In this document: piece after piece, positions 422 through 19,287 of the stretch
Layout of the letters: each line of letters begins with the position of its first letter
Position numbering within the stretch: position 1 is the first letter of the stretch
Origin: Pseudobdellovibrionaceae bacterium
GTDB lineage: Bacteria; Bdellovibrionota; Bdellovibrionia; Bdellovibrionales; UBA1609
Length of the DNA stretch: 20,000 bases
NCBI GenBank assembly: GCA_030591685.1
Contig: JAUVAX010000008.1
Coordinates: forward strand, 50,890 to 70,889
Reading direction: 5' to 3'
Notes under the pieces: generated by a model
Database searches by the model: none
What the model was told of the DNA's origin: nothing
The model's input: only the letters and a program-made list of their open reading frames with translations
Position numbers and translations under genes: made by a program

Positions 422-1158
422 CTAAATATACAATTTTAATATTAATTTTTATAAGCCTAACGGGTTGTGCAAACTTTGGTAAAAAAATGAAGGCACTCGT
501 GTCCGGTAAGGACGCCAAAAAAGGGCCGGTTAAAATAAAGTCAGTAAATTTTTCAGATAAAGATTTTCATAGGTCAGGGCCTCGAAGGCAGTACACCAGG
601 GTTACAAAAAAATCATTAGAGCAAGCCAATCAGTTAAATTCAAGAGCCGGATCACTTTGGGTCATGGAGGGGCAGGGGTCTTATTTATTTTCACAAAATG
701 TTGTTCGAATGATTGGTGACTCTATGTCTGTACGCTTAGAGGGCGACCCGCGAGACCAACTAGAGGCGAAGGTGCAAGTCATACAAAACTTATTAGATAA
801 AATAAAAGAGCGAAAAAAACAAAAAGCACGTCGATTGGCTTCGAAAAGAAACAAAGTAAAGGGTAAACAAAAAGCCGAAGAGCCCTCGGCAAAAAAAGTA
901 GATACAAAAAAAGTGGCCTCAAAGGAGGGTGCATTAAGTGTTAAAACCGTACCTACAAGAATCGTAGAGAGAATGTTAGATGGAAATTACCGCATAAAGG
1001 GGAGCCAACCCTTCATGCTCGATAAGTACGAATATAAGGTGATTGTTATGGGAGTTGTTAGGTCAGAGGATTTTAACGAAGAAGGGGTCAGCGCATCAAA
1101 ACTCCTTGATCCAAAGTTTGAAATTGTGAGTTCAAGAAGGAGTGTATCCAGACTATGA
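418..1158 (+). CDS. flgH: Flagellar L-ring lipoprotein FlgH
   Basis: Lipobox LTGC; GSLW motif; C-terminal IVERMLDGNYRIKGSQ...VIVMGVVRSEDF typical of FlgH. ATGA overlaps with flgA and flgI. Contains a Lys-rich central insertion. Confidence 0.9.
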   Translation: MTKYTILILIFISLTGCANFGKKMKALVSGKDAKKGPVKIKSVNFSDKDFHRSGPRRQYTRVTKKSLEQANQLNSRAGSLWVMEGQGSYLFSQNVVRMIGDSMSVRLEGDPRDQLEAKVQVIQNLLDKIKERKKQKARRLASKRNKVKGKQKAEEPSAKKVDTKKVASKEGALSVKTVPTRIVERMLDGNYRIKGSQPFMLDKYEYKVIVMGVVRSEDFNEEGVSASKLLDPKFEIVSSRRSVSRL

Positions 1159-2156
1159 AAACTTTAACTGTATTTCATGTAGTAATGTTTGTATTAACAA
1201 TAGGCATAACGTCAGAGGCCGCACGATTAAAAGATGTAGCTAATATTAGAGGCGTTCGTGCAAATCAGTTAGTGGGCTACGGCGTAGTTGTCGGGCTTAA
1301 AGGAACAGGGGACAGCAAGGCAGAGTTTACTAATAAAAGTATCGAGAGAATGTTTGACAAGTTGGGAATGAAAACTTCAAGTAAAGATATTGCCAGTAAA
1401 AATGTGGCCGCTGTGATTATAACAGCAAAGCTCCCGCCTTTTTCAAGGGCTGGGAACGAAATTGATATCACAGTAAGTGCTGTGGGTGATGCTTCGAGTT
1501 TAAAGGGCGGTACGTTAATACAAACGCCACTTAGAGCTGCCGATCAGCAAATTTATGCAGTGGCACAGGGCTCAGTACTTGTTGGGTATAGTGCCGAAGG
1601 GGTTCATGAAACAGTGGCTCGTTTACCTAACGGAGCTATGATTGAGCGTGATTTAGGTGGAGATTTTTCGAAACGAAAAATGTTCAGGCTAACGTTGCAT
1701 AACCCTGACTTTACCACGGCGGCTCGTGTAGCAAAAAAAATAAATATTGATCTTGCTGGTAAGTACGCCAGTGCAAAGGATGCAAGTACAATTGATTTAA
1801 TCTCCCCGCCCGCTTATGAAGGTCGAGGTGTTGAGCTCTTGGCATTAATCGAAAGTCTAGAAGTTCTGCCTGATATTAACGCTAAAGTTGTGGTTAATGA
1901 AAAAACAGGTACGGTAGTTATAGGGCATAGAGTGAAAATTTCTACAGTAGCAATCATGCATGGTGACCTTTCTCTGAGGGTTGGTAAGAAAAGTAAAAAA
2001 GGCGGAGACAGGGTTATTGCTTTAAAGGAAACGGCAAATGTAGGTGAACTTGTCAAGGCTATGAATAGTCTAGGTGTCTCTCCTAAAGACCTGATAACAA
2101 TACTTCAAAGTATTAAGGCAGCTGGAGCTTTGCAGGGGGAAATCGAAGTTTTATGA
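1155..2156 (+). CDS. flgI: Flagellar P-ring protein FlgI
   Basis: Signal peptide, then ARLKDVANIRGVRANQLVGYGVVVGLKGTGD, KNVAAVIITAKLPPF, SSLKGGTLIQTPL and C-terminal PKDLITILQSIKAAGALQGEIEVL. Confidence 0.98.
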   Translation: MKTLTVFHVVMFVLTIGITSEAARLKDVANIRGVRANQLVGYGVVVGLKGTGDSKAEFTNKSIERMFDKLGMKTSSKDIASKNVAAVIITAKLPPFSRAGNEIDITVSAVGDASSLKGGTLIQTPLRAADQQIYAVAQGSVLVGYSAEGVHETVARLPNGAMIERDLGGDFSKRKMFRLTLHNPDFTTAARVAKKINIDLAGKYASAKDASTIDLISPPAYEGRGVELLALIESLEVLPDINAKVVVNEKTGTVVIGHRVKISTVAIMHGDLSLRVGKKSKKGGDRVIALKETANVGELVKAMNSLGVSPKDLITILQSIKAAGALQGEIEVL

Positions 2157-2204
2157 AAAATAAATTTTATTTTTATGATTTTAATTTTAAAATATTTAAA
2201 GGGT

Positions 2205-2407
2205 CGTTTTACACATGGATGTGTAGCGCCTCTGGGGATGGTGAGTTAGAGAGCGTTAACCAAGGACGGATAGCTGATTACAGTTTCTCGCAGGAAACGG
2301 TCGGCAAAATTAAAGTTCAGTGTAGGTCAAGGATTGACCACATACAGACTTTACTTAAGAGTGCAGGATGCACGTTGGTTTCTGGCTCATCTACCCCCTT
2401 TTTTTTT
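2205..2407 (+). ncRNA. Putative structured non-coding RNA with multiple GGA hairpins (CsrB/RsmY-like CsrA-binding RNA candidate)
   Basis: Seven GGA motifs in 2217-2368. Perfect hairpins TACACA-TGGA-TGTGTA, GGTCAA-GGA-TTGACC and GTGCA-GGA-TGCAC. Long closing stem 2234-2260/2374-2397 with many G-U pairs that only form on the + strand. T9 run at 2399-2407. The 5' boundary is approximate. Confidence 0.6.
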
Positions 2408-2472
2408 CATTTTGGTAGAAGACAATCATTGATATATAAAGCAGTAAACACCCCATTTCTGGCGGTATAGTT

Positions 2473-3180
2473 GTGGGGTCGATACCTATTAAAGGTGCAC
2501 TGCCAATTAACCCTAGAGCACAGTTGAAGCCCTCTGAGTTTCAATTGAAACAAAAACAAAAACTCAGACAAGCCTCTCAAATGTATGAGCAAAAATTTCT
2601 AAATACTATGGTTGCGCAAATGCGAAAAACCGTTTCTAAAAGTGGGCTAGTAAAACAATCTTTTACTGAAGGTTATTTTCAAGATCGCTTAGATAATAAT
2701 TATGTAGAAGCGTGGACAAAAAAGGGAGGGATAGGTCTGGCTGATTTAATTTATAATCAGCTAGAAGAAAAAATATTCCCTAAGCCTCACCGAATGCTAA
2801 AGCCTCAGGGGCCGCTCCCTGTAGCTCCAGGTAAAGCACACCCTATAAAAACGAACAAGGTAGAGCCAAAATTTAAAGTCATAGAGTCCCCTCCAGCTGA
2901 TGGTTCGCGAGGGGTAAACTTTCATATACAAAAGGGGTCACCCCTAAATGACAACATTGCGCTCACCGCACCCTGGGGGGGAGAGGTGACAGATGTTTCA
3001 TCGAATGGTTTAATAAATACGATTAAAATTTCACACAAAGACGAGTTACAAAGTGTGATTAGTTTTAATGGCACAATGCAGGCCTTAAATCGGGGAGAGT
3101 TACTACAACCTGGACAGGAGTTGGGGCAATTAAGCGGGGCCTCGTCTGGTTTTTTTTGGGGAGTACGGTTAAAGTCCTAA
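2473..3180 (+). CDS. flgJ: FlgJ-like rod-binding protein with a degenerate M23-peptidase-like C-terminal domain
   Basis: N-terminal rod-binding motif KLRQASQMYEQKFLNTMVAQMRKTV...GGIGLADLIYNQL; located after flgI. C-terminus follows the M23 pattern. GTG start has a weak RBS, so the start is uncertain. Confidence 0.82.
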   Translation: MGSIPIKGALPINPRAQLKPSEFQLKQKQKLRQASQMYEQKFLNTMVAQMRKTVSKSGLVKQSFTEGYFQDRLDNNYVEAWTKKGGIGLADLIYNQLEEKIFPKPHRMLKPQGPLPVAPGKAHPIKTNKVEPKFKVIESPPADGSRGVNFHIQKGSPLNDNIALTAPWGGEVTDVSSNGLINTIKISHKDELQSVISFNGTMQALNRGELLQPGQELGQLSGASSGFFWGVRLKS

Positions 3181-3217
3181 AACGGCTATAAAGCTGTATT
3201 AGAAGGGCTTTTACCAT

Positions 3218-3245
3218 TTGGAATTAGGTCTCATTATGGTACAAT
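3218..3245 (+). promoter_or_regulatory. Putative sigma-70 promoter for flgM
   Basis: TTGGAA (3218-3223), 16-nt spacer, TACAAT (3240-3245) preceded by an extended -10 TGn. RBS GGAGG at 3258-3262. Confidence 0.45.
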
Positions 3246-3266
3246 TAACTGTGTATTGGAGGAATT

Positions 3267-3584
3267 ATGAAGATTTCTAATAACTTAGGCGCTGACAGTA
3301 AACTGTCAAACCTAGACAAAGCAAAAAGTAAGTCGGACGACAATCTAGGGGCGTTGGGTAAAAATAAGCAGGGAACTAGCAGTGCTGATATTAATTCGGC
3401 AGCAAAGGTGAACCTTTCTGAGTCAGCGCAGAGAATGAACAAAGCTAAGGCTATCGCTAGCGAGCCATCTATTAATGATGCAAAAGTAGAGAGGCTTCAA
3501 AAGTTAATTGATGGTGGTGAGTATAAAATTGATGCTTCAGCAGTTGCGGATCGCTTAGTAGATGAACATTTGTTAATGTCATGA
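3267..3584 (+). CDS. flgM: Anti-sigma-28 factor FlgM
   Basis: Low-complexity N-terminus, KVNLSESAQ, and the C-terminal signature AKVERLQKLIDGGEYKIDASAVADRLV. Confidence 0.96.
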   Translation: MKISNNLGADSKLSNLDKAKSKSDDNLGALGKNKQGTSSADINSAAKVNLSESAQRMNKAKAIASEPSINDAKVERLQKLIDGGEYKIDASAVADRLVDEHLLMS

Positions 3585-3606
3585 ATTTATAGTTAGGGGT
3601 TTTAAT

Positions 3607-4122
3607 ATGCAAAAGTCACAACTAAAAAGCTATGATAATTTAATTTGTAGTCTTCAACAAATTATTAAAGTCTACAGGGGCCTGCTAGATAACTTGCGGT
3701 CAGAAAAAAACATATTAATTCAAGCTGATTTGAACGACCTTAACAAAAACAATGTGGCCAAAGAGAAACTACTGGTACACGTCGGCCGACTTGAAAAGCA
3801 AAGAGTTCTTTTAACAAAAGAATTCGCTACTGTAATTGAGTTTAACTCTGAAGACCCCCGATTATTAGATATAGCCAATCATCTTGGTGGAGAAAGCGGG
3901 GACAAGTTAAGAAACCTTCACTCAGTGCTTGTGTTGTTATTAAAGCGAGTGAAAGAGCACAATGATCAAAATGATGTTTTAGTGCGTTCAGCCCTTGAAA
4001 ACGTAACGGGCGCTATGAAGAGCATAAAAGAAACTGTGTCGGAGGGCTCGACGTATAAAAGAAAAGGAAACGTGCTGAAAGGCACAACCCAGTCAGGACG
4101 ACTGGTCAGTAAAGAGGCTTAG
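3607..4122 (+). CDS. flgN: Flagellar export chaperone FlgN
   Basis: Helical protein between flgM and flgK with the FlgN pattern (L..L..EK..L...DL..L; VKEHNDQNDVLVRSAL; STYKRKG). Confidence 0.88.
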   Translation: MQKSQLKSYDNLICSLQQIIKVYRGLLDNLRSEKNILIQADLNDLNKNNVAKEKLLVHVGRLEKQRVLLTKEFATVIEFNSEDPRLLDIANHLGGESGDKLRNLHSVLVLLLKRVKEHNDQNDVLVRSALENVTGAMKSIKETVSEGSTYKRKGNVLKGTTQSGRLVSKEA

Positions 4123-4150
4123 GGCTTTTTAAGGACTGAAAGGCGACAGG

Positions 4151-5578
4151 ATGTCGAAGATTAACTCCATGTTGAATATTGGGCGCAGATCTATGCAAAA
4201 TAGTTCTTCTGCGCTACAGACCGTCAGTCACAATATTGCCAATAAAAACACCAAGGGCTTTTCAAGACAAAGGGTTGAATTTGAAACCAACGAACCTGTT
4301 GGGCACGGTAATACGCGCGTAGGCATGGGGGCTCGCCCAGGAATGATTAGAAGAATTAACAACCCCTACCTGGAGAAGCAAATAGAAAAAGAGGGGATGG
4401 GCTTAGGCCGCTCTGAGGGGCGTTCTGAGAGTCTTTCAAGAGTTGAAGAAGTCTATAACGAGCAAGTCAACAAGGGTTTAAATCGATTTATGGGTGAATT
4501 TTTTAACGCCTTTAGAGAGCTTTCAAATAATCCAGAGAGTTTAGCTTCAAGAACAATGGTTAAAGAGTCGGCGGATTTTTTAACAAAAGATTTCAAGCGC
4601 GTTGGTACACAGCTATCCGGTATTCAAAGGGATATAGATTATCAATTGGCTGCACATGTTGAAGAGATCAATCAAATGACAAAAGAAATTGCTCAACTCA
4701 ATGAAAAAGTACAACTTGTAACTATGCAGGGCGGCCCCGCTAATGATGAGCGAGACAGAAGGGATGTACTTTTAAAAGAACTCGGCGAAAAAATTAATAT
4801 TAAATACGGCGAAAGCGATGATGGTTTAATTTCAATAACAGCCGGCTCATCGGCGGTTGTGGTGAGTGGTCTTGGTAGTCGAGAGTTATTTGTCAGTGCC
4901 ACGGGTGCAAAGGGTACAAAGGGTGAAGGTAACTTTGATGTGTTTTATAAGCCGACAGACACAGGAACCCCTGTAAATATCACACGTCAGCTCACTGGTG
5001 GTAAAATAGGTGGGCTTTTAAATGTTCGTGATGAAGTTATTAATGGATTTAAAAGAAATCTGGATGAAATGGCCTATACTTTAGCAAGTGAGGTGAATGA
5101 AGCTCATGTGTCAGGGTTTGACCATTATAACAAAAAAGGCGGGGCCTTTTTTGCCCCATTAAAAAAAGTAGAAGGTGCCGCTAATGAGTTGCAGGTTAAT
5201 AATCAAATTTTAGGTGACGTGGGTTTTATTGTGTCTGCCGCAAGCCCAAATGCTCCTGGTGACAACACTATTGCTAATATTTTGTCTTCGTTACAATATA
5301 AATCTGTGATGAATGGTGGCAAGGCCACTATTGATGAGTTTTATAACTCTCAAGTGGGCAAGGTGGGCATACTTTCTAATAGGGCCAACAATGAGAGGGA
5401 ATCACAGAACGCTCTTGTAAAACAACTTGAACGAATACGAGAAAGTGTGAGTGGTGTTAATTTAGATGAAGAGACAACGAAACTCATTGAGTATCAAAAG
5501 AGTTTTGATGCTTCGGCGAGGTTAATACGTACGGCGGACGAAATGATGGATACAGTTTTAAACTTAAAAAGGTTTTAG
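4151..5578 (+). CDS. flgK: Flagellar hook-associated protein FlgK
   Basis: ALQTVSHNIANKNTKGFSRQRV, NDERDRRDVLLKEL and RESVSGVNLDEETTKLIEYQKSFDASARLI motifs. Confidence 0.98.
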   Translation: MSKINSMLNIGRRSMQNSSSALQTVSHNIANKNTKGFSRQRVEFETNEPVGHGNTRVGMGARPGMIRRINNPYLEKQIEKEGMGLGRSEGRSESLSRVEEVYNEQVNKGLNRFMGEFFNAFRELSNNPESLASRTMVKESADFLTKDFKRVGTQLSGIQRDIDYQLAAHVEEINQMTKEIAQLNEKVQLVTMQGGPANDERDRRDVLLKELGEKINIKYGESDDGLISITAGSSAVVVSGLGSRELFVSATGAKGTKGEGNFDVFYKPTDTGTPVNITRQLTGGKIGGLLNVRDEVINGFKRNLDEMAYTLASEVNEAHVSGFDHYNKKGGAFFAPLKKVEGAANELQVNNQILGDVGFIVSAASPNAPGDNTIANILSSLQYKSVMNGGKATIDEFYNSQVGKVGILSNRANNERESQNALVKQLERIRESVSGVNLDEETTKLIEYQKSFDASARLIRTADEMMDTVLNLKRF

Positions 5579-5588
5579 GTAAACGATT

Positions 5589-6695
5589 ATGAGAATAGCT
5601 GACACAATGGTATTTGAGCAAACGAGGGAGAATTTAGGGACGAATCGTTCAAAATTAGCTCATTTACAGAACAAAGCGGCTACTCAAAAAAGAGTCACAA
5701 AGCCCTCTGACGATCCTGTGGCGGCAGCGCGAGTGCTGGCCTCAAGAATTGACCTCTCCGGGCAAAAGCAGTACTTAAAAAATTTAAATTATGCAAAATC
5801 ATTTTTAGACTTTACAGATCAATCCTTAGGCGAGCTCTCAGAGCTACTGATAAGGGCCAAGGAGCTTGTATTAGGTCAGGCCTCAGACGCTTCATCAAAC
5901 ACCGAATCCCGAAGGGTTGTCGGCACAGAGGTAGCTCAGTTATTTAGACAGTCTGTAAACATAGGGAATAGAAAGCTCGGTGATCGCTATATATTTGGGG
6001 GGTACAAAACAACAACCCCACCATTTTCGTCTAAGGGGCAATACGAAGGGGATAAGGGTGAAATATTAATTCACGTAAATAAAGACTCATTTATGGCTAT
6101 GAATATCCCTGGCAGTAAAGTTTTTGGCGGTGAGGGTTTAACAAATGGTGGGGCGGGACATGTGGCTAATGTTCAAGCAAAAACAGTAGAGGCCCTTAAA
6201 GAGCAGCAGCTTCAAAAAAAGCAGGCCACAGATCAAAAAAATGACCCCGGTTATGATTCAGTGTCACTAAGGGGGCCAGCATCTGTCGGGGGCTCTCCGG
6301 GTAGTACTGAGAGTGAGGCGCCTCAGAGCAAAGGGGTAGAGAGTGAGGATAGCGGTGATGGCCAAAATCTATTTGTCATGTTGCAAAACCTTGAAATCAG
6401 TTTAATGGCCGATGATAAAGCGGGGATTCAGGACTCTATTGATGAGTTAGACTCTGCTATTAATCAAGTTGTGCTCTCAAGGTCCCACGTGGGGGCCCGT
6501 GTGACGGCCATTGATAATACTTTTGAGTCACTTCAAAAAGCGAAGGTCGATAGCCAGACTACAATCTCGCAATTAGAGGATGCTGACATTTATGAACTAG
6601 TCAGTGACATAACTAAAACAGAGAGCGCTTTACAGGCCACCTTATCCACTTCAGCCAAAATTCTACAACCTAGTTTACTTGATTTTCTAAGATAA
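5589..6695 (+). CDS. flgL: Flagellar hook-associated protein FlgL
   Basis: MRIAD start, KRVTKPSDDPVAAAR, RYIFGGYKTTTPPF and C-terminal AKILQPSLLDFLR. Low-complexity central insertion. Confidence 0.97.
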   Translation: MRIADTMVFEQTRENLGTNRSKLAHLQNKAATQKRVTKPSDDPVAAARVLASRIDLSGQKQYLKNLNYAKSFLDFTDQSLGELSELLIRAKELVLGQASDASSNTESRRVVGTEVAQLFRQSVNIGNRKLGDRYIFGGYKTTTPPFSSKGQYEGDKGEILIHVNKDSFMAMNIPGSKVFGGEGLTNGGAGHVANVQAKTVEALKEQQLQKKQATDQKNDPGYDSVSLRGPASVGGSPGSTESEAPQSKGVESEDSGDGQNLFVMLQNLEISLMADDKAGIQDSIDELDSAINQVVLSRSHVGARVTAIDNTFESLQKAKVDSQTTISQLEDADIYELVSDITKTESALQATLSTSAKILQPSLLDFLR

Positions 6696-6891
6696 AAGTA
6701 AAAATCCAAAAATAATTTAAAAAAATTATTCTTAAACGTAAATATATTAGTCCACGACTATGCTTTAAATAGATTCGCTGAGAAAACACTACGACTCTTC
6801 TCAACCAATCTTAGCCTTTGTGATTAAGGACTCATCACTACAAAATTATCCATAAATTAGTATTATATTCCTAAATTTCGGACAAATTTCA

Positions 6892-6910
6892 TAACAAGGC
6901 TCCCTTGTTA
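6892..6910. promoter_or_regulatory. Perfect inverted repeat; candidate enhancer (UAS) for a sigma-54 activator
   Basis: TAACAAGG-CTC-CCTTGTTA, centred about 115 bp upstream of the predicted sigma-54 start site. Confidence 0.45.
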
Positions 6911-6940
6911 CATAACGCAAAATCTATATTTCCTAAATAT

Positions 6941-6953
6941 TAACAGATAGTTA
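6941..6953 (+). promoter_or_regulatory. IHF-like binding site
   Basis: TAACAG-ATAG-TTA versus WATCAR-N4-TTR (one mismatch), with an AT-rich 5' flank. Lies between the palindrome and the -24 element. Confidence 0.35.
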
Positions 6954-6990
6954 GGGTCGTCCCGTCGAAGTCCCAACAAATTAAAACTAA

Positions 6991-7006
6991 TGGCATATTA
7001 ATTGCT
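6991..7006 (+). promoter_or_regulatory. Sigma-54 (RpoN) -24/-12 promoter of the accessory operon
   Basis: TGGCAT-ATTAA-TTGCT versus consensus TGGCAC-N5-TTGCW; exact GG-N10-GC spacing (6992-6993, 7004-7005); correct orientation, about 50 nt before the ATG at 7055. Confidence 0.8.
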
Positions 7007-7054
7007 ATAGAGGTTGTTAAGGATCACTCGAAAACAATAAGGACACAGTAAATA

Positions 7055-8149
7055 ATGAAATTCCTCACTTTATTAATTACTCTTAATGTAGCTTTAGCCT
7101 CGTTGGCCCAGTCAGTGGGGTTCCAAAAGAATGATCTGTTTGCTGACCTCTTTAAGTACAGCTACAATTCATCAAAACTTATTAAAAGCGAATTTTATAA
7201 TCTAGCAGATTATATGATGTCAGAATGTGAAGCACATGATCATAAACTAAACTTTCTATGTGAGTTCCCCATCTCGGTCTCTGAATTCAGGCAAAGAGAA
7301 CGTTGGATTACTGAAAATACGCTTGATCCTATGAACCCATTAAGTGGCGGTCAAATTTATCTAGCTCAGGATGAATGGACAGATCATGATATAAGGACTC
7401 TCAGCTGGAGTCTCGGCCTTGCACTTACAGGATTAGACGAACAAACATCTATTGTAAAAAAGACTCTAGGTTGGTTACTCCTAAAGGAATCTGTAAAGTT
7501 TGAGGCTAAAAAACTAAAGGACCTCTTTAAATGGCGATCATCCAAAAAAGCCTATCAATTGGAATATACTTCTCTACCGCATATAATATCGAGTTTACAG
7601 AGCCCCTACGCTTTTTCTCAAGCCATCGACTTTGCCGAACAAATTGAATGCAGAGATCTTGTGATTTGCCTTGATATAAAAAGAGCACTGAAAAATATGG
7701 CCATAAATAACATTTTAAACCCAAGTATTATGGGAAAATCTAAAGCTATTTTGAAGGGGCTAAGGGCGGAGAACGAGTATACCTCTGGCCGAGTAAAAGT
7801 GGCCTTTGAGAGGGTCAGCCTTATAAAGAAATTAAGTAAGGCTGTCTATGAGAAAAAAGACATGGGGGATAACCAGCACTTACTTAATACTCTTGTCGAA
7901 GTATTAAAAAGGGATGTTGTTTCATATAGAAGGCTCACCCTTTCGTTACATATAATTAAATTAGAAACTCTAATTGAATATCAAGAGAAGTATAAAAACC
8001 AAGTAGTCACAAAAGATTTACCTTATATAAAAAACTACCCCGGGTATAAATTATTAGAGGATAAAATTAAAAATGACATCATAGAAACATTTAGAGTTCT
8101 GTCTCATGAATTAGAAAACACACAAAATGGCCTTGAAAATGGAGGGTAA
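7055..8149 (+). CDS. Hypothetical exported protein (toxin operon gene 1)
   Basis: 364-aa ORF with AAGGA RBS and Sec signal peptide MKFLTLLITLNVALASLA. Mostly helical-looking, with two Cys pairs. No family recognised. Confidence 0.85.
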   Translation: MKFLTLLITLNVALASLAQSVGFQKNDLFADLFKYSYNSSKLIKSEFYNLADYMMSECEAHDHKLNFLCEFPISVSEFRQRERWITENTLDPMNPLSGGQIYLAQDEWTDHDIRTLSWSLGLALTGLDEQTSIVKKTLGWLLLKESVKFEAKKLKDLFKWRSSKKAYQLEYTSLPHIISSLQSPYAFSQAIDFAEQIECRDLVICLDIKRALKNMAINNILNPSIMGKSKAILKGLRAENEYTSGRVKVAFERVSLIKKLSKAVYEKKDMGDNQHLLNTLVEVLKRDVVSYRRLTLSLHIIKLETLIEYQEKYKNQVVTKDLPYIKNYPGYKLLEDKIKNDIIETFRVLSHELENTQNGLENGG

Positions 8150-8150
8150 A

Positions 8151-9329
8151 ATGAAAAAGCATAAATATATAAACACAAGTCTATCTTTAGTAGTACTTTT
8201 AACCTTAAGTGCTTGTACAAAAAAACAACATGATGATTACCCTGCTCAACAAAAAAATAATATAGGTAAAAAGATAAACTCAGAGCCGCCGCGCTATAAA
8301 TATGAATTAGAAAATATATATAGGCACGTTAAATGGAATATTGAATTAACAGTAAATGAACCCATACACTTTGAGTCAAAAGCTGAATGCATATTCAGCA
8401 GTGTATATAGTGATACTTGTAATTTAAGGGAAATAGTGCGAGTACAGCAAGGGCCTAAAATCTATTACTTAAAGCAGGCACAGCCGGCCTCCGAAGCCTC
8501 ATCAGCGGTAAAATTAAATGCAGGTGAGCGAATTTATAAAAAATCTTATAATTTATCTACAATTAAAAAACACAAAGCCGATTTTAAAAGTCTAGAATCT
8601 GAATTCTTTAACCTTTTAGACAATTCAACACCAGTAAAAATTATTGAATTTACAGACAAAATTGACATGCCTCTCTACAGAAGGGCACTCAAAATACAGT
8701 ACCACTACCAAACGAATCGTTGTAAATCTGAGATACTTACTGAGTTGGCTCAACAGTGCCCTATAAAAAATCGAAGTATATATTTAAGCAACCTGGCTAC
8801 GAGCCTTTCTAGTATTCTAGTTCCATCAAACCTACAATTAATTGAAATTGATATTAATAGTTCTAACTTTCTAGGTTTACCGAGGATAAAAAACAACAGA
8901 CATTACCCGCATAATCGATATGCGCCAGGAATTTTTATAGAAAACCCCAGACTTAAAACTGTTCGTATTCAACTGAATAAACTCATTGACGAAAACAACC
9001 TTGTTGATTCTGTCCAGCCTACATTTCAGACGGGTTTAAAGTTTTACTCAATGTTCTGCTCTGATATTTATCAAAGAATATATATCGAGGATCTTGGAAA
9101 TAAAGATGGGAGATATTTCTCTGACGATGGAGACTATTATAACAAGGATATCGATTACAAGGCGGGGCAAGAGATTAGTTTAGAATGGGATAAAGAATTT
9201 GAAATAGTTGAACTTATAAATTTCATATCCGATGATATTTTTAATCCAAAACAAATAGTTAGTTATTTTAATGTTAATTATAAATATGACTTTAAAAAGA
9301 CCATTAACCTGGGAGCCCCTTGTGAATAA
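8151..9329 (+). CDS. Hypothetical lipoprotein (toxin operon gene 2)
   Basis: Start reassigned to ATG 8151 (GGAGG at 8141-8145; 1 nt after the previous stop). MKKHK-hydrophobic-LSAC lipobox with Cys22. Confidence 0.87.
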   Translation: MKKHKYINTSLSLVVLLTLSACTKKQHDDYPAQQKNNIGKKINSEPPRYKYELENIYRHVKWNIELTVNEPIHFESKAECIFSSVYSDTCNLREIVRVQQGPKIYYLKQAQPASEASSAVKLNAGERIYKKSYNLSTIKKHKADFKSLESEFFNLLDNSTPVKIIEFTDKIDMPLYRRALKIQYHYQTNRCKSEILTELAQQCPIKNRSIYLSNLATSLSSILVPSNLQLIEIDINSSNFLGLPRIKNNRHYPHNRYAPGIFIENPRLKTVRIQLNKLIDENNLVDSVQPTFQTGLKFYSMFCSDIYQRIYIEDLGNKDGRYFSDDGDYYNKDIDYKAGQEISLEWDKEFEIVELINFISDDIFNPKQIVSYFNVNYKYDFKKTINLGAPCE

Positions 9330-9333
9330 CTAA

Positions 9334-11202
9334 TATATATGTAGACTCAAAAAATTAACTATAATTGCACTAAGTTGCGCTTATACACCAATAGCACTGG
9401 GTAATCTATCCGTGGCAGTTGATGTAGATGTGAGCATGAACCTAACTGGCTCCCTTATGCATCACATAAAGGCCAGTCAATTAGACCCCTGCTGGCGCTT
9501 AAATGGAAAGAGGACGCCGTCAACATATGGTCCTAAAGAGGCAAGTAAAAAAATAAAAATAAATCTAGAGACCTCTAAAACACTCACTTATCATTTATAT
9601 GCCTCTGGGGTAAATGCCTCGTCAAGGTTACTAACTCATAAAATTTCTGACGATGGTGAATACCACACACTTAGAAGTTTAACCCTTAAATCAACAATAG
9701 AAAAAACTAACAATACTGAATCTGTCGAGTTAGACCTATCTGAATTAAGACCCATAGATAATAACAAGGGTCTTGGCACATACTTTAACAATAATACTTG
9801 CGAAAGCTTTAATTACAATTACATTTTTTCACAACCAAAAATTTCAGGTCATATTTTAGTGAAATATAAAATGCCTAAAAATAGTTACCTAGTTAAGGTC
9901 ACAAGAACACGTGCTGAATCACTTTTGTCTATAGAAAACAGTAAGGTTAATGGGTTTAGGGGGCTTAAAAACGCCCTTAACAGAAATCTTGATAAATCAG
10001 TGATTAAACAGACATACTATATTTGGGCAAAACCCGGCAGCACATTAATACAGGATTTTGAATACAGAGAAATGAAAGATGACTTTAGCGGTCATTTAAA
10101 ATTTAAATTCGAACCTATAATTGCGAAAGATGTAAAAATTAATACCAGTTCGTTTCGTAAGTTCACCAAAAAATTAGAAAATCTTCTAATGGCAGTTAAC
10201 ACTAAAGTACAAATTAAACCTAAGGATTTTCATCTAATAGAAGAAGAATTTGCAGAAGAAATGGCAGGAATTGTAGGGAATGAAGAAAACATACAAGAGA
10301 TAGCTAAAATACTTTCACTTAAAGAGTTATCAAGATTTCTTAATATGTTAATAACGTTAAGGGATTCAAATGTCAATCAGGCCGAATTTTCTACTGTAAA
10401 ATTGGGCATAAGTATATTTACCCATCAAATGACTCAGGCCTTATTGGCGGACCTTTTGCCTTTATGTGAAAGTATAACGATAAAACTGCCGTATAAGGAT
10501 AAAAAAATTACTACAGACATGGTTCGAGTTGCGAGTTATTTATTAAAAAAAGCGGCATTGAGGTTAGAAAACACAACCATAAAGCCATTTGAAAGCCTTA
10601 TTTCAAATATTTATGAATATCAAAAAAAAGGATTATCATTTAGTCAAATTAGAAATAACATGTCAGAGTACGAAAAAATATTAAAATCGTATTATAATGT
10701 CGCGGGCGCCATAGATGTAAGGCAAAGTCCGATCAAAGAGGCTTATAATAATATTGCATATATTTTAGATGAAACAAATAAATTAAAAATAAAAAATAAA
10801 GACCATGAAGACATACTTTTAAAATTAGAGCAGGCGATGGAATTAGAGAATAATTTCACAAATGAGCTGTCTGATTTCATTAGACTATTTTCAGGCACAA
10901 ACACTGACCCTATTAATATATCTGAATTAAAGAGAGGGGCTGAGAATATTGAAAGACTGGTGAATAAAACTATAGAAGAACTTAAATCAAACAGGGGGGT
11001 ATTTGCAGTGTCTAATAACGGGGTTCTGTTTGTTTATAACTTCATAGCATCCCTCGGAGCTCATGAAATTGATCCCTTAATAGAGCCGCTGAAATCAGAC
11101 TTAGAATATTTCAGACGTGCATTTTATGATCAGAAGTATCTAGTCAAAACATCAGAGAAAATTAAATTATGCCGCCTAGGAGTTGAAAATGAGACAGATT
11201 AA
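9334..11202 (+). CDS. Hypothetical probably exported protein (toxin operon gene 3), start region apparently disrupted
   Basis: The frame is open from 9334 and encodes a signal-peptide-like RLKKLTIIALSCAYTPIALG ahead of the first usable start (GTG 9412). Beta-rich N-terminal half, long helical/coiled-coil C-terminal half. Confidence 0.8.
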   Translation, partial: YICRLKKLTIIALSCAYTPIALGNLSVAVDVDVSMNLTGSLMHHIKASQLDPCWRLNGKRTPSTYGPKEASKKIKINLETSKTLTYHLYASGVNASSRLLTHKISDDGEYHTLRSLTLKSTIEKTNNTESVELDLSELRPIDNNKGLGTYFNNNTCESFNYNYIFSQPKISGHILVKYKMPKNSYLVKVTRTRAESLLSIENSKVNGFRGLKNALNRNLDKSVIKQTYYIWAKPGSTLIQDFEYREMKDDFSGHLKFKFEPIIAKDVKINTSSFRKFTKKLENLLMAVNTKVQIKPKDFHLIEEEFAEEMAGIVGNEENIQEIAKILSLKELSRFLNMLITLRDSNVNQAEFSTVKLGISIFTHQMTQALLADLLPLCESITIKLPYKDKKITTDMVRVASYLLKKAALRLENTTIKPFESLISNIYEYQKKGLSFSQIRNNMSEYEKILKSYYNVAGAIDVRQSPIKEAYNNIAYILDETNKLKIKNKDHEDILLKLEQAMELENNFTNELSDFIRLFSGTNTDPINISELKRGAENIERLVNKTIEELKSNRGVFAVSNNGVLFVYNFIASLGAHEIDPLIEPLKSDLEYFRRAFYDQKYLVKTSEKIKLCRLGVENETD

Positions 11203-13012
11203 AAATATATTAACACTAATTATATGTATATCTTTAAGCACGCCAGCTTTTTCTAAAAATGAGTTTATGGAGAACGCTAAGGAGTCCATTGTTGCGGCAA
11301 ACGAAGCGGCAGATAATCTGGTGGATACGTTGGTGGCACAGAATATTGCTGGCGCTCTCAATGAGGCTATATCTAAAGTTTCCTCACTAGAGGAGAATAA
11401 ACACAAAAGAGATAGTTTTGTTTTAGCTATGAAGAATCTAAAGATTAAATTTGAGAATTTTCAATCTAAGCCGCAAGATAGTTATGAAGTCACTAAAGAG
11501 GCCATTGAGGTGGCCTATGCTCAGTATATTAACTATTATAGAGAGGTCATGGATAGCTCATGGAATCCTATTTCAATTGACCATCAATTTAAATCATTAC
11601 CTAAAGTTTTGTCCTCAACACTGAGTCATATTAGGGAGCAATGCGATGCGGGGATCTCGATTGATAATTTTGAGAATATAGTTCAGTCTTCAGAGGATTT
11701 ACCGAAATATGAGTTTGATTGGGAGATAATGTTAAATCTTTCAGCAGATTATACCCCAAGTTACGCCGACTATCAGGCTTATAACTATTTAGAAGAGAAC
11801 AGCACTCGTACATTTTTATTTGATGCCTCAAAGTATGCCTTTGCAGGGTCTACAGGCGTTGCAAGCATTCAGGGGGCGGCATATTTAAATACTTTTATGG
11901 CCGGCGGGACACTGGCTTCAGCCGAACTCACTGGCGCAATAGGTACGGCCTCTAATGCTGCAATGGCAATTATGCCTTACGCCGCTGCAGCTATGGTTGT
12001 AATGGCTCTTATCATGGACATCTCAGCAAGAAACAAGTTAGACAAGTTACAAAGACAAAAGGCCGCCGCTGATGTGTATAAAATAAAAAATACAAGGCGA
12101 TCACAATGGCTAAAGGCTGAATATGCCACCCGCTGTGAAACAATGAAGGGATTACTAAGCACACTAATTACTGACTTAAATTTTGTAGCTAATAATATTA
12201 GTAATCAAAAGGCGTTGAGTGATTATTATACAAATGACCTTATGGACTTAAAAAATGCCTATAGTAAAATGGAGGATTTCAAAACCGCTAAGCAAATGCT
12301 AAAGCTTGAGTCACTATATAACAAGAAGCTTTGTGTCAGTGAGGGTGTGTATAAAAATATCGACCCAGACCTTTTTGTGTCAGCTAAAAGCAGTATACCT
12401 AAGTGTTATGCCTCTCCAGATAATTCAACCCTACATCTTGTTGACGGCAACCATTCACAACTTTTAATTAAAATTACTAAAAGTGGAAAGTTAGACATTG
12501 ATCAAAAATTCATTCAATCGTCATTGAATGAATTTAAATCTAAGGATGGCGATACGTTTTCTGACAATAAAAAAATATTCGCCACCAATAGCATGTACAT
12601 AAGGTATAAAATTTATGAAATGTTCGTAGTACAAAGAAAGAGTATTATGAATAGTATGAAGTCATTTTCAGGATCATACCTGTCTAAAGTTCAAACGCAG
12701 GCTTTTAATAGACTTCTAAATTTAATTTCAGTTTATAGAAATTTTAAATCTAGGCCAATTGATAAAATTCTTAATGACGAGCTTGATGCTCAAAAGGAGT
12801 ATAGTACCTTAGTCAGTGAGTTTAATGATCTCCTTAACTTAAGTACAAACTATATTTTTGGAAAGGTTAAAAAATCAGTTGTTAGACTTAAGAGCATGGC
12901 TTTAAATCAAAAAATGAGTAGTTTCTATGATAGATACGTATACATCGCTGAGGTTACAGACCTGATGAGAGACTTTAAAGGGTATAAACAATCACTTGGC
13001 TTTAAACATTAA
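11189..13012 (+). CDS. Hypothetical exported helical protein with a central Ala/Gly-rich hydrophobic segment (possible pore-former or translocator; operon gene 4)
   Basis: ATG 11189 after AGGAG, overlapping the previous gene. Signal peptide MRQIKNILTLIICISLSTPAFS. About 60-aa segment with a single charged residue at 11834-12016, flanked by amphipathic helices. Confidence 0.85.
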   Translation: MRQIKNILTLIICISLSTPAFSKNEFMENAKESIVAANEAADNLVDTLVAQNIAGALNEAISKVSSLEENKHKRDSFVLAMKNLKIKFENFQSKPQDSYEVTKEAIEVAYAQYINYYREVMDSSWNPISIDHQFKSLPKVLSSTLSHIREQCDAGISIDNFENIVQSSEDLPKYEFDWEIMLNLSADYTPSYADYQAYNYLEENSTRTFLFDASKYAFAGSTGVASIQGAAYLNTFMAGGTLASAELTGAIGTASNAAMAIMPYAAAAMVVMALIMDISARNKLDKLQRQKAAADVYKIKNTRRSQWLKAEYATRCETMKGLLSTLITDLNFVANNISNQKALSDYYTNDLMDLKNAYSKMEDFKTAKQMLKLESLYNKKLCVSEGVYKNIDPDLFVSAKSSIPKCYASPDNSTLHLVDGNHSQLLIKITKSGKLDIDQKFIQSSLNEFKSKDGDTFSDNKKIFATNSMYIRYKIYEMFVVQRKSIMNSMKSFSGSYLSKVQTQAFNRLLNLISVYRNFKSRPIDKILNDELDAQKEYSTLVSEFNDLLNLSTNYIFGKVKKSVVRLKSMALNQKMSSFYDRYVYIAEVTDLMRDFKGYKQSLGFKH

Positions 13013-13056
13013 GGGAATGTTTTTTAATTATTATTTACGGTTCCCTTGTTTTAAAG
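13000..13056 (+). terminator. Imperfect intergenic hairpin between gene 4 and the toxin gene (weak terminator or mRNA-stability element)
   Basis: CTTTAAA/TTTAAAG and AAGGGAA (13011-13017)/TTCCCTT (13041-13047) inverted arms; the inner stem is followed by GTTTT. Confidence 0.35.
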
Positions 13057-13082
13057 GCTCTAAGTTACTTAAGGAGTACAAT

Positions 13083-15296: not shown

Positions 15297-15300
15297 CTCT

Positions 15301-15555
15301 ATGAATTATGAAACTGAAATAATAAGTATCGTTAAAATTTATCAACGCCAGTTTTCAAAAGATAGGGTAAAAAGCATTATCGAATTAGCTCAAAATAATG
15401 AACACGGAATTGCCCTAGAAAACCTTTGCTCTGAGATTTATGAACATAATTTACTTATTACTCGAGATGATTTTAACAAACTAAAACAAATGATCGATGA
15501 GATGGACTTGAGTAGTGTTAATATAGGTGGCCTGCGGGTTAAACCTATTAGTTGA
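15301..15555 (+). CDS. Cognate immunity protein (MafI-family-like)
   Basis: 84-aa helical cytoplasmic ORF 4 nt after the toxin stop. Motif NEHGIALENLCSEIYEHNLLI resembles the MafI-type immunity proteins paired with EndoU toxins. Confidence 0.82.
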   Translation: MNYETEIISIVKIYQRQFSKDRVKSIIELAQNNEHGIALENLCSEIYEHNLLITRDDFNKLKQMIDEMDLSSVNIGGLRVKPIS

Positions 15556-15651
15556 ATGTGAGTGGCCAAATTGAACCTTAAAGATGAACGCGGCAAAGTC
15601 TACATATACTCGACGGCTTAAGGATTTAAATTAAAAGCCTATCGATGACAA

Positions 15652-17814: not shown

Positions 17815-17916
17815 AAGATCTCCTTAAATATAATGTGCAAAGTATTTTGACCCATTATACATAGGTATATTTTTTTTAAAAAAAAATGTGATGAATTTGA
17901 AAACTCTTCAGTGTTG

Positions 17917-18225
17917 TCAGATATTTAACCCGTACATAGTCCTTTTTGGCTTTGAATTGGCGTATAAAACTATGTCCATGTTGCTTGGTGCCCTCTAGAG
18001 TTCAAAGACCTAGCCTTTTGCATAATCATAACCTACTCCATGTATTTGTGGCTGTAAGTTGGGGCTTAGAGCCTGAAGGGCATTTTCTTCGATGTGTATA
18101 CAGCCCTCGGAGCGAGTGATGCCCTTAATTGGTTTTTATAAGATTAAGCATAATGAGAACGTGTTTTTGTGTGCATGGGCACTACATGCAGTGATGAGAG
18201 TAAAAAAATATAGGTGTAAAAATTA
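17917..18225 (-). pseudogene. Possible decayed small gene remnant
   Basis: One minus-strand frame reads FFTLITACSAHAHKNTFSLCLIL*KPIKGITRSEGCIHIEENALQALSPNLQPQIHGVGYDYAKG*VFEL*RAPSNMDIVLYANSKPKRTMYGLNI*. It has a lipobox-like ITAC and coding-like composition but three internal stops and no start codon. Confidence 0.25.
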
Positions 18226-18278
18226 TAACTCCAGATATCTGGCTATGAGTCTTGACTTTTAGCGGGGGAAATAATAGC

Positions 18279-18306
18279 TAATGTTCTCTAATTATGTCGC
18301 CGATAA
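18279..18306 (+). promoter_or_regulatory. Sigma-28 (FliA) promoter upstream of csrA-fliW
   Basis: Perfect -10 GCCGATAA (18299-18306). -35 TAATGTTC (18279-18286) versus TAAAGTTT, with a 12-nt spacer (consensus 11). Confidence 0.65.
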
Positions 18307-18388
18307 CTGGCACATAGGGGTATTGATGGTTACTGCAAGAGACCCCCTTTAAAAGGTCTTTGACTAGGATGTTGAAGGAGATAACGTC

Positions 18389-18616
18389 ATGTTAGTTCTT
18401 ACAAGAAAGCTCGGAGAGAGCATTGCAATAGACGACCACATTAAGATAAGAGTGGTCCAAATTAAAGGTAAACAGGTTCGTCTTGGGATTGAAGCCCCAA
18501 AAGACACTAAAATTCATAGAGAAGAAGTCTATTTAGCCATTCAAACCCAGAATGAAGAGTCTGCAACGAGTCAGCCCGACAGCGCGCGCGCCGCATCAGA
18601 GCTTTTAAAGCCCTAA
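18389..18616 (+). CDS. csrA: Carbon storage regulator / translational regulator CsrA
   Basis: MLVLTRKLGESIAI...QVRLGIEAPKDTKIHREEVY; Arg44 present; C-terminal extension with Asn55 as in FliW-binding CsrAs. Strong AAGGAG RBS. Confidence 0.99.
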   Translation: MLVLTRKLGESIAIDDHIKIRVVQIKGKQVRLGIEAPKDTKIHREEVYLAIQTQNEESATSQPDSARAASELLKP

Positions 18617-18747: not shown

Positions 18748-19287
18748 ATGCAAATCGAAACATCTAGATTTGGCTTAGTGGACATTGAAAAAGAAGACAT
18801 GGTGTTATTTCCCGAGGGGATCCTAGGGTTTAATACCTTAAGAACATTTATTTTTTTAGATGACCCCAATGACGACATATTTGCCTGGCTACAATCTGCT
18901 GAAAACTCAGAAATTGCCTTTCCTATTTTAGAGCCTGAGTTATTTGCGGAGGACTATACAGTTAAAATTTCAAAAAGTGATATGCAGGCCTTAAAGCTTA
19001 CGGACCCGAGCTCTGGTTACAGGGCGTTTACTATAATCACTATCCCTGAAGACCCCACTAAAATGACAGCTAATCTAAAAGCTCCAATTATAGTTAATGT
19101 TAAAAATAAGCTAGCTCGTCAATGTGTACTTCAGGACAATAAGCTGGCCATTTGTGAACCTATTTTTAATAAGCTTCAACAGCGCATGGTGCAGGCCCCT
19201 GAGACTTCTATAAAATCACAAACAAGTGAACTCAGTTTGTCCATCAAGTTACCTGAGAAAAAAAGAACTCTAGAAATTGTAAAATAA
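18748..19287 (+). CDS. fliW: Flagellar assembly factor FliW (CsrA antagonist)
   Basis: MQIETSRFG, FPEGILGF, FAWLQS and MTANLKAPIIVN motifs; directly after csrA. Confidence 0.98.
   Translation: MQIETSRFGLVDIEKEDMVLFPEGILGFNTLRTFIFLDDPNDDIFAWLQSAENSEIAFPILEPELFAEDYTVKISKSDMQALKLTDPSSGYRAFTIITIPEDPTKMTANLKAPIIVNVKNKLARQCVLQDNKLAICEPIFNKLQQRMVQAPETSIKSQTSELSLSIKLPEKKRTLEIVK

Follow-up and report, generated by a model that had tools for sequence, protein, structure and literature searches.

An APsRNA1-family RNA with conserved GGA hairpins between flgI and flgJ of Bdellovibrionales, a putative CsrA sponge

The locus and the predicted fold

The 20,000-nucleotide (nt) stretch of DNA analyzed here (hereinafter, the window) comes from a Pseudobdellovibrionaceae bacterium (order Bdellovibrionales; positions 50,890 to 70,889 of contig JAUVAX010000008.1, assembly GCA_030591685.1) and contains flagellar genes, among which the gene for the P-ring protein (flgI) and the gene for a FlgJ-type rod-binding protein are separated by a structured RNA of ~207 nt encoded on the same strand. 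The last codons of flgI overlap the likely promoter of this small RNA (sRNA), and flgJ is followed by flgM, flgN, flgK and flgL; the genes for CsrA and its protein antagonist FliW lie further downstream (Table 1). An earlier note, made from the letters of the window alone, had claimed that the flgI-flgJ spacer hides an unannotated RNA with multiple GGA motifs that either sequesters CsrA or acts as a CsrA-sensing attenuator inside the flagellar operon.

The anatomy described in that note is borne out by direct reading of the sequence. All seven GGA trinucleotides (2217, 2236, 2264, 2268, 2293, 2331 and 2366) are present in the contexts given for them, and so are the three perfect hairpins, TACACA-TGGA-TGTGTA (2210-2225), GGTCAA-GGA-TTGACC (2325-2339) and GTGCA-GGA-TGCAC (2361-2373), the run of nine T residues, the TAAAAT hexamer and the long closing stem. 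Folding of 2200-2410 on the plus strand to minimum energy recovers the same arrangement, with an energy of -70 kcal/mol (z = -3.73; 0 of 200 shuffled sequences as good) compared with -50.1 kcal/mol for the minus strand (z = -1.74; 12 of 200 as good), in agreement with the claimed preference for the plus strand. In this model, the RNA is a 5' hairpin followed by a multi-arm junction, and the long stem that closes the junction (P1) resembles, together with the U-run behind it, an intrinsic terminator.

Table 1. Features of the RNA locus and of the csrA-fliW region (window coordinates)
Feature	Position	Strand	Basis or remark
flgI, flagellar P-ring protein, 5' neighbor	1155..2156	+	PF02119, 2.6e-111
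TAAAAT, putative -10 box of the RNA promoter	2188..2193	+	inferred by position
Small RNA	2199..2407	+	start (~2199) predicted by homology; end, T-run
Hairpin 1, loop UGGA within CAUGGAUG, GGA 2217-2219	2200..2233	+	minimum-energy fold
Closing stem P1, 5' strand GGGGAUGGUGAGUUAGAGAGCG, contains semi-conserved GGA 2236	2234..2255	+	pairs with 2376-2397
Site 2, CCAAGGACGG, GGA 2264-2266 in a junction mini-hairpin of 2-3 base pairs	2260..2269	+	
Arm with site 3, invariant GCAGGAAAC; GGA 2293-2295 paired, in the 3' half of the hairpin GUUUCU/GGAAAC	2273..2305	+	
Arm with hairpin 3 (GGUCAAGGAUUGACC), GGA 2331-2333 at the apex	2311..2353	+	
Hairpin 4, GUGCAGGAUGCAC, GGA 2366-2368 at the apex	2361..2373	+	
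Closing stem P1, 3' strand	2376..2397	+	pairs with 2234-2255
T9 run	2399..2407	+	with P1, likely intrinsic terminator and RNA 3' end
flgJ-type rod-binding protein gene, 3' neighbor	2473..3180	+	PF10135, 4.9e-13
csrA, presumed partner	18389..18616	+	PF02599, 5.6e-26; only copy in the genome
fliW, protein antagonist of CsrA	18748..19287	+	PF02623, 5.8e-36

Conservation and covariation

Of 41 related genomes, 15 contained the element in a DNA search, with flgI on the 5' side in all 15 and flgJ on the 3' side in 14; the contig of the 15th locus ends inside the RNA, so the flgJ side is out of view. A covariance model (R1) that was based on 15 sequences, that of the window and those of 14 relatives, matches the window at 2202-2408 with 183.4 bits, and detects the RNA in 117 of the 151 genomes assigned to Bdellovibrionales by record titles (96 of 125 high-quality genomes; 59 of 70 genera), with one copy per genome except for two fragmented assemblies (G140 and G150) that yield two matches each. 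In a sample of 151 genomes searched with stricter Infernal filters, none of the 127 from other orders of the phylum was matched, and all 20 matches fell within the order. The gene order flgH-flgI-RNA-flgJ is found in all 32 loci examined, and flgM comes next wherever the locus extends that far. Among the first 100 loci listed by a pattern scan, R1 confirms 53, the carriers being labeled Bdellovibrio, Bdellovibrionaceae, Pseudobdellovibrionaceae or Bdellovibrionales; the remaining 47 loci belong to other phyla and match by chance. Kinship among the genomes inflates all such conservation counts.

All nine genomes of the genus g34 were scored as RNA-negative under the speed filters, and the one that was examined (G045) carries a diverged copy that an unfiltered search detects with 25.8 bits (L176:2483-2701). 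In this copy, little survives beyond CAUGGAUG, CCAAGGAAGG, CACGGAUG and, again, CAUGGAUG, and three of the four GGA sites are in clear hairpin loops. The count of 117 among 151 genomes is therefore an underestimate. Full-length RNAs scoring 100-191 bits are also present in a metagenome-assembled genome titled 'Streptomyces griseus' (L110; CALQIT020000063.1) and in three records titled 'Proteobacteria bacterium' or 'Pseudomonadota bacterium' (L058, L089 and L114), all of which are probably mislabeled or loosely labeled Bdellovibrionales bins.

For the analysis of covariation, 75 distinct sequences were aligned with MAFFT, so that the alignment was not fitted to the covariance model; the consensus fold of 44 pairs was derived with RNAalifold from the same 75 sequences, which somewhat favors the structure. 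It comprises a 5' hairpin of 12 base pairs (bp), a P1 of 13 bp, a 3-bp mini-hairpin at site 2, the GUUUCU/GGAAAC hairpin and two GGA-tipped hairpins. Of the cells in these helices, 90.8% are paired, compared with 36.6-49.2% when the partners are slid by 1-3 columns. Compensatory changes, with both sides altered, occur in 20 of the 44 pairs (303 cells altered on both sides against 93 in shuffles), and the covariation score of 0.315, compared with 0.06-0.12 for the slid partners, was reached by none of 500 shuffles.

The individual helices contribute unequally. In hairpin 1, both partners have changed in 10 of the 12 stem pairs. The stem of hairpin 3 switches from C-G to U-A in 21 sequences and from G-C to A-U in 19, and hairpin 4, with 98.7% of its cells paired, switches from U-A to C-G in 21 sequences and from G-C to A-U in 7. 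The CC/GG pairs at site 2 are kept in 62 and 69 of the 75 sequences. In P1, 92.7% of the cells over 10 pairs are paired and three pairs are altered on both sides, the variation being mostly one-sided, from G-C to G-U, which fits the plus strand and also implies that the P1 sequence itself is constrained. By eye, a T-rich run (not counted) follows P1 in nearly every row of the alignment. Comparison of sequences thus supports the predicted fold, and both the GGA loops and the covariation, the lack of which in relatives the earlier note had named beforehand as a possible refutation, are found among the 75 sequences.

The GGA motifs that the earlier note had counted are not equally conserved: all seven exist in the window, but conservation in relatives is limited to five. 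The GGA of hairpin 1 (2217) is kept in 74 of the 75 sequences, usually as CAUGGAUG; that of site 2 (2264) in 66, usually as CCA(A/U)GGA(U/A)GG; that of site 3 (2293) in all 75, usually as GCAGGAAAC, with G89-A94 and C97 (numbering of the first alignment row) invariant; that of hairpin 3 (2331) in 72, usually as CAAGGAUU; and that of hairpin 4 (2366) in all 75, usually as GCAGGAUGC. The GGA in P1 (2236) is kept in 49 sequences and that at 2268 in three. Conservation within the RNA is highest at these five sites, and three of them are in apical loops, those of hairpins 1, 3 and 4, where the stems are free to vary and the loops are fixed. Neighboring conserved sites are 29-47 nt apart. The average number of GGA per RNA in the 75 sequences is 7.4; the opposite strand has 1.9, and mononucleotide shuffles have 4.4. 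In our own comparison, the contexts resemble RUACARGGAUGU, the consensus for CsrA from systematic evolution of ligands by exponential enrichment.

Homology to APsRNA1

By homology, the window RNA belongs to the APsRNA1 family and to none of the Csr/Rsm families, APsRNA1 being an attack-phase sRNA of Bdellovibrio bacteriovorus HD100 that spans 499,375-499,581 (+), 207 nt, in Table 2 of Karunker et al. (2013, PLoS One 8:e61850; PMC3627812). R1 matches the HD100 genome (G084) at C1:499378-499590 (+) with 1.1e-32, and by eye the published APsRNA1 sequence (supplement Fig. S1) is that of G084:C1:499375-499581 (L166:2076-2282); in the family alignment, APsRNA1 aligns with the window RNA over its full length, and it likewise lies between flgI and flgJ, on their strand. 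Records named B. bacteriovorus (L060 and L113) are also matched by R1.

As reported in the article (PMC3627812), APsRNA1 reaches 50,451 reads per kilobase per million (RPKM) in the attack phase and 3,181 in the growth phase, a 16-fold difference, and has a start of its own, mapped by 5'-end sequencing with and without tobacco acid pyrophosphatase, for which no FliA promoter is listed there. Table S1 of the same paper gives the neighboring genes much lower values, RPKM 15.0/9.0 (attack/growth) for flgI (Bd0535, ends at 499,332) and 7.7/41.5 for flgJ (Bd0536, starts at 499,642), so that, by the published RPKM, APsRNA1 exceeds flgI or flgJ more than 3000-fold in abundance. According to these data, flgJ and flgM peak in the growth phase and APsRNA1 in the attack phase. 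The methods of the paper specify that intergenic signals joined to the gene downstream were left out, and its text states that the attack-phase sRNAs (APsRNAs) lack significant homology outside B. bacteriovorus and suggests for them only a generic role in base pairing.

The discrete transcript that the earlier note had envisaged is, then, on record for the HD100 homologue, abundant and with its own start. The description of the RNA as unannotated does not hold everywhere, the homologue having been published in 2013, with expression alone reported. In our literature search, which left subscription journals outside, the name APsRNA1 was found in no paper besides that of Karunker et al. To this record, the present analysis adds the conservation across the order, a fold backed by covariation, the set of five GGA sites kept in relatives and the proposed link to CsrA. 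In addition, the homologous stretch of HD100 is contained in 14 public RNA runs, all in the form of assembled contigs from which starts, ends and strand are not readable. Three of the four runs inspected show one long contig across the whole region, and the fourth contains short unitigs inside the RNA at a depth of 2200-7113 compared with 459 in the flanks, a weak hint at most.

Promoter, terminator and the relation to flgJ

The window RNA is likely to be transcribed independently, from a putative promoter of its own. In HD100, the published start of APsRNA1 is 6 nt after TACAAT, and by homology the start in the window is expected near 2199, 12 nt before ACACAUGG, as in HD100. Across the family, a TATAAT-like hexamer (at least five of six matches) occupies the -10 place in 44 of 74 members, compared with 10 of 74 in a control interval 40 nt further upstream. 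In one relative (L031), a hairpin with a U-run stands between flgI and the RNA, which argues for the RNA's own promoter. About 20-45 nt 5' of the RNA, in the -35 position, several relatives (L034-L042, L017, L019 and L025) share the motif GTTTC(N4-6)GA(C/A)AC, which in Bdellovibrio is part of the inverted repeat TGTGT-N9-ACACA. The motif may serve as a weak -35 box or as the site of a regulator; the AT-rich version of this region in the window lacks it.

At the other end, the published 3' end of APsRNA1 falls within its U-run. The distance from the U-run to flgJ varies among relatives from 0 to ~480 nt. In L013 and L014/L030, the flgJ ATG directly follows the U-run, leaving no space for a promoter, which implies that flgJ is read through the element there. 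In HD100 (G084, L166:2283-2346), the U-run of the RNA is directly followed by a second canonical hairpin with a U-run (GGUAC-AUCC-GUACC), and the Shine-Dalgarno sequence AGGAG and the flgJ ATG come ~25 nt later; there being no space for a flgJ promoter, flgJ would depend on read-through of two terminators. In the window, by eye, a plausible flgJ promoter, TTGGTA-17-TATAAA, is located at ~2414-2442, a candidate that the promoter search did not list. Also by eye, the T9 run and a 65-nt spacer without GGA (2408-2472) part the last GGA site from the flgJ start at 2473, so that the window contains no GGA site overlapping the flgJ Shine-Dalgarno sequence of the kind seen in leaders of the hag/flaA type.

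Among five genomes probed from other orders, four contain flgI, two of these with a clear flgI-flgJ spacer and two without a spacer or a recognizable flgJ. The two spacers, which R1 does not match, are 313 nt long with 14 GGA and four strict hairpin sites (L177:2500-2812) and 95 nt long with two sites (L178:2484-2578). A GGA site overlapping the flgJ Shine-Dalgarno sequence is seen in these loci, and in L177 that sequence is held by the last hairpin. These spacers may be ancestral CsrA-controlled leaders or distant homologues of the RNA, and the two cases, being two only, suggest that CsrA control of the flgJ leader predates the sRNA.

CsrA, FliW and flagellin leaders

The CsrA encoded in the window has a C-terminal extension and N55, features that together mark the FliW-binding type of CsrA (PMC13407953). 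According to PMC13443453, CsrA of B. bacteriovorus represses the GGA-hairpin leader of Bacillus subtilis hag, as assayed by B. subtilis swarming, A(N)GGA on hairpins being the known recognition mode of CsrA.

In the order Bdellovibrionales, CsrA was found in 140 of the 151 genomes. By our own reading of the search tables, which was not scripted and from which the csrA distances below also derive, CsrA is co-encoded in 113 of the 117 RNA-positive genomes, the four exceptions being fragmented assemblies, whereas among the genomes without an RNA match 27 encode CsrA and seven do not. The joint absence of the RNA and CsrA was considered as an argument and set aside as uninformative, given that all five such genomes tested also yielded no FlgI with the query used, which implies that the whole flagellar cluster is missing or unassembled. 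Among the 30 best RNA matches, 27 have csrA on the same contig, downstream and on the same strand, ~4-5.4 kb away and directly after flgL in 25 of them; in the window and in G103, csrA is farther off, at 16.0 kb and 12.2 kb, respectively. Further down the list, some matches depart from this arrangement (e.g., G013 and G162).

The genome of the window encodes eight flagellins in addition to FlgL. The 170 nt 5' of the eight flagellin genes contain six strict A(N)GGA-in-loop hairpins compared with 0.97 expected; four of the eight leaders have such hairpins (e.g., GCCAAAUGGAUGGC and CAUCAAGGAGGAUG), and GGA is also present in the ribosome-binding site. These leaders are likely targets of CsrA, to judge from their sequences. 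The flagellin genes of this genome (G000) include those at C22:310, C85:1074(-), C93:27409 and C23:18908, and four more.

A putative CsrA sponge

With moderate confidence, we propose that the APsRNA1-family RNA is a trans-acting sRNA that sequesters CsrA on its five conserved GGA sites, the binding being a prediction. The properties to be expected of such an RNA are apparent: several conserved A(N)GGA motifs are exposed on hairpin loops, no reading frame is kept, P1 with its U-run is conserved, and the homologue has an independent start and a very high abundance. Of the sponge claim in the earlier note, the design, the conservation and the transcript of a homologue thus stand, and CsrA binding itself is only predicted. 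Under this proposal, CsrA dimers, with two RNA-binding faces each, would bridge neighboring GGA sites, the spacing of 29-47 nt allowing one RNA to hold two or three dimers. In the attack phase, the abundant RNA would keep CsrA away from leaders such as those of flagellin, with their GGA hairpins and Shine-Dalgarno GGAs, and leave these free for translation; after prey entry, the RNA would fall, as in the 16-fold drop seen in the growth phase, and the released CsrA would repress those leaders. FliW, encoded beside csrA, would act in parallel as a protein antagonist.

Several observations count against this proposal. The invariant GGA at 2293 is predicted to be base-paired, the GGA at 2264 is in a stem of merely 2-3 bp, and five sites are few compared with CsrB. 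The RNA yields no match to the models of CsrB, CsrC or RsmX/Y/Z (PrrB_RsmZ and relatives included). The long closing stem that doubles as the terminator stem, and the flgJ start directly after the U-run in some relatives, fit a cis-acting element equally well. CsrA is more widespread than the RNA, given the 27 CsrA-positive genomes without an R1 match; of five of these that were probed, four yielded no FlgI with the query used and the fifth (G045) has the diverged copy. Finally, the density of strict A(N)GGA-in-loop sites is unexceptional within the window genome, where the locus ties with seven other intervals outside open reading frames (ORFs), all unremarkable by eye; each of the eight holds three sites, and ~2 such intervals are expected by our own Poisson estimate. 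Under a loose definition of the GGA hairpin, there are 2.44 sites per kb genome-wide and the locus is unranked. As a detector, GGA-hairpin density within the genome was accordingly dropped from the evidence; what exceeds chance expectation is the fold and the conservation, not this density.

Comparison with known systems

No Rfam family is matched at its gathering score in the window, and with E values up to 10 the interval 2100-2520 yields three noise matches, to snoRNA, lncRNA and scaRNA models; a confident match to an unrelated family, which the earlier note had named as a possible objection, was thus not encountered. Like CsrB/CsrC and RsmX/RsmY/RsmZ, the window RNA is an apparently untranslated RNA within the range of 100-350 nt, with several A(N)GGA hairpin loops, a U-run terminator, high abundance (in the homologue) and CsrA encoded in the same genome. 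Unlike those RNAs, with which it shares no sequence or structure homology, it has five conserved sites only, a location in the flagellar cluster and a CsrA of the FliW type as the presumed partner; also, instead of a string of hairpins with a separate terminator, its sites lie inside a junction closed by the terminator stem.

Parallels are also seen in the CsrA-FliW-flagellin circuits of B. subtilis (hag) and Campylobacter jejuni (flaA), which share with the present system a CsrA with a C-terminal extension and FliW, encoded next to flgK-flgL, as well as the flagellar context and the GGA hairpins in flagellin leaders. In C. jejuni, the titrating RNA is the flagellin mRNA itself, flaA mRNA being both target and titrator of CsrA (Dugar et al. 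2016, PMC4894983), whereas in the present case CsrA would be titrated by a dedicated non-coding RNA with a putative promoter and a terminator of its own. With APsRNA1 of HD100, the window RNA shares the family, the position between flgI and flgJ and the length of ~207 nt.

Alternative explanations

Among the alternatives, we give a modest chance, well short of even, to the possibility that this is a structured sRNA unrelated to CsrA, either a base-pairing regulator of attack-phase mRNAs or a ligand of another protein, in which case this other partner or tertiary contacts would account for the conservation of the GGA loops. Such a role would agree with the base pairing proposed for APsRNAs generally (PMC3627812). 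The P1 sequence is kept beyond the needs of pairing, only three of 10 pairs being altered on both sides; the invariant 9-mer GCAGGAAAC exceeds in length what a CsrA site requires; and the density of GGA hairpins, as noted, is not unique in the genome. However, five separate A(N)GGA motifs on hairpins with freely varying stems correspond to the mode of recognition by CsrA, and we know of no other bacterial protein with a specificity for A(N)GGA hairpins. The genomic link to flagellar genes and csrA-fliW also fits CsrA, and the consensus fold shows no long single-stranded seed of the kind typical of sRNAs that act by base pairing.

It is unlikely, in our assessment, that the element acts chiefly in cis, as a leader or attenuator that senses CsrA, in which P1 and the U-run would stop RNA polymerase unless occupancy by CsrA alters the fold. 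Polymerase arriving from the RNA promoter or from flgI would then determine how much flgJ-flgM-flgN-flgK-flgL is expressed and, in most relatives, also how much csrA-fliW is, which would amount to autoregulation; the abundant short RNA would be a terminated by-product, or the element might have a dual role. The arrangement of flgJ in L013, L014/L030 and HD100 described above speaks for such a device, as does the fact that 27 of the 30 best matches have csrA downstream of them and on their strand. Moreover, the terminator stem closes the whole junction of GGA arms, so that folding of the arms and termination are physically coupled; the ratio of flgJ to the sRNA is, by our own arithmetic from the RPKM, ~85 times higher in the growth phase than in the attack phase, a figure confounded by RNA stability; and the flgI-flgJ spacers of two genomes from other orders (L177 and L178) hold GGA hairpins, one of them beside or over the flgJ Shine-Dalgarno sequence. 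Against it, the variable spacer between the U-run and flgJ, the plausible flgJ promoter in the window and the opposite phases in which the sRNA and flgJ/flgM peak all have to be considered. The more than 3000-fold excess of the sRNA over flgJ, reported in a study whose methods had discarded signals connected to the downstream gene (PMC3627812), also speaks against it. The attenuator that the earlier note had offered as its alternative is thus weakened by this excess and kept alive by the flgJ ATG abutting the U-run in some relatives.

The remaining possibilities, that the stretch is protein-coding (the 105-amino-acid ORF 2153-2470 or a shorter one) or is the 6S RNA of the lineage, we regard as negligible and reject: ORF 2153-2470 (+) is open through the whole RNA and the terminator, and a stop-free plus-strand frame crosses the element in 38 of the 75 members, likely due to a purine-rich, stop-poor composition, but the frame is not kept (distances between anchors modulo 3 are distributed 47/16/10, 34/21/18 and 32/25/16 of 73), the translations contain stops and differ among relatives, the ORF has no Pfam family and the changes observed are compensatory base-pair changes; and the size, abundance and build-up in a non-growing phase recall 6S RNA, but the 6S model (RF00013) has no match in the window and a canonical 6S RNA scores above the Rfam cut-off elsewhere in all four genomes tested (G000, G084, G045 and G009), in the window genome at C19:32338-32495 with 57.6 bits. 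A gene caller could annotate a false protein at 2153-2470.

Implications

The sRNA antagonists of CsrA are described mainly from Gammaproteobacteria, under the control of BarA/UvrY, and are said to be absent from bacteria with FliW, whereas fliW is described as absent from Gammaproteobacteria and anti-correlated with BarA-UvrY (PMC7652899, PMC13407953). In our literature search, limited as stated above, we found no publication that links a Bdellovibrio sRNA to CsrA, nor RIP or CLIP data sets of CsrA from this lineage. If the sponge reading is true, the presence of a multi-GGA sponge in a FliW lineage would break this division between sRNA and FliW, and a function would be assigned to an orphan sRNA of a predator that is under study as a living antibiotic. 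Conceivably, although we would put the chance of this at somewhat less than even, Bdellovibrionales employ two antagonists of CsrA simultaneously, FliW and a sponge RNA, of which the latter evolved from a CsrA-controlled flgJ leader of a type that persists in other orders of the phylum, rose to be among the most abundant RNAs of the attack phase and gates the switch between the swimming hunter and intracellular growth, with its terminator still metering flgJ-flgM...csrA-fliW. Such a history, if true, would exemplify the origin of a sponge in a regulated leader, and the RNA would be the first known to sponge a FliW-type CsrA as well as the first sponge in bacteria other than Gammaproteobacteria.

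A further observation concerns the ~11.7 kb between flgL and csrA in the window (6696-18388). This stretch is likely an insertion because csrA is ~4-5.4 kb from the RNA in 25 of the 27 relatives with the downstream arrangement. It contains six large ORFs (7055-8149, 8127-9329, 9412-11202, 11183-13012 and 12996-15296 on the plus strand and 15652-17814 on the minus strand), five of which have no Pfam family above the cut-off; an ORF of 766 amino acids has at its C-terminus, as polymorphic toxins do, a nuclease domain of the bacterial EndoU type (PF14436, 1.4e-09).

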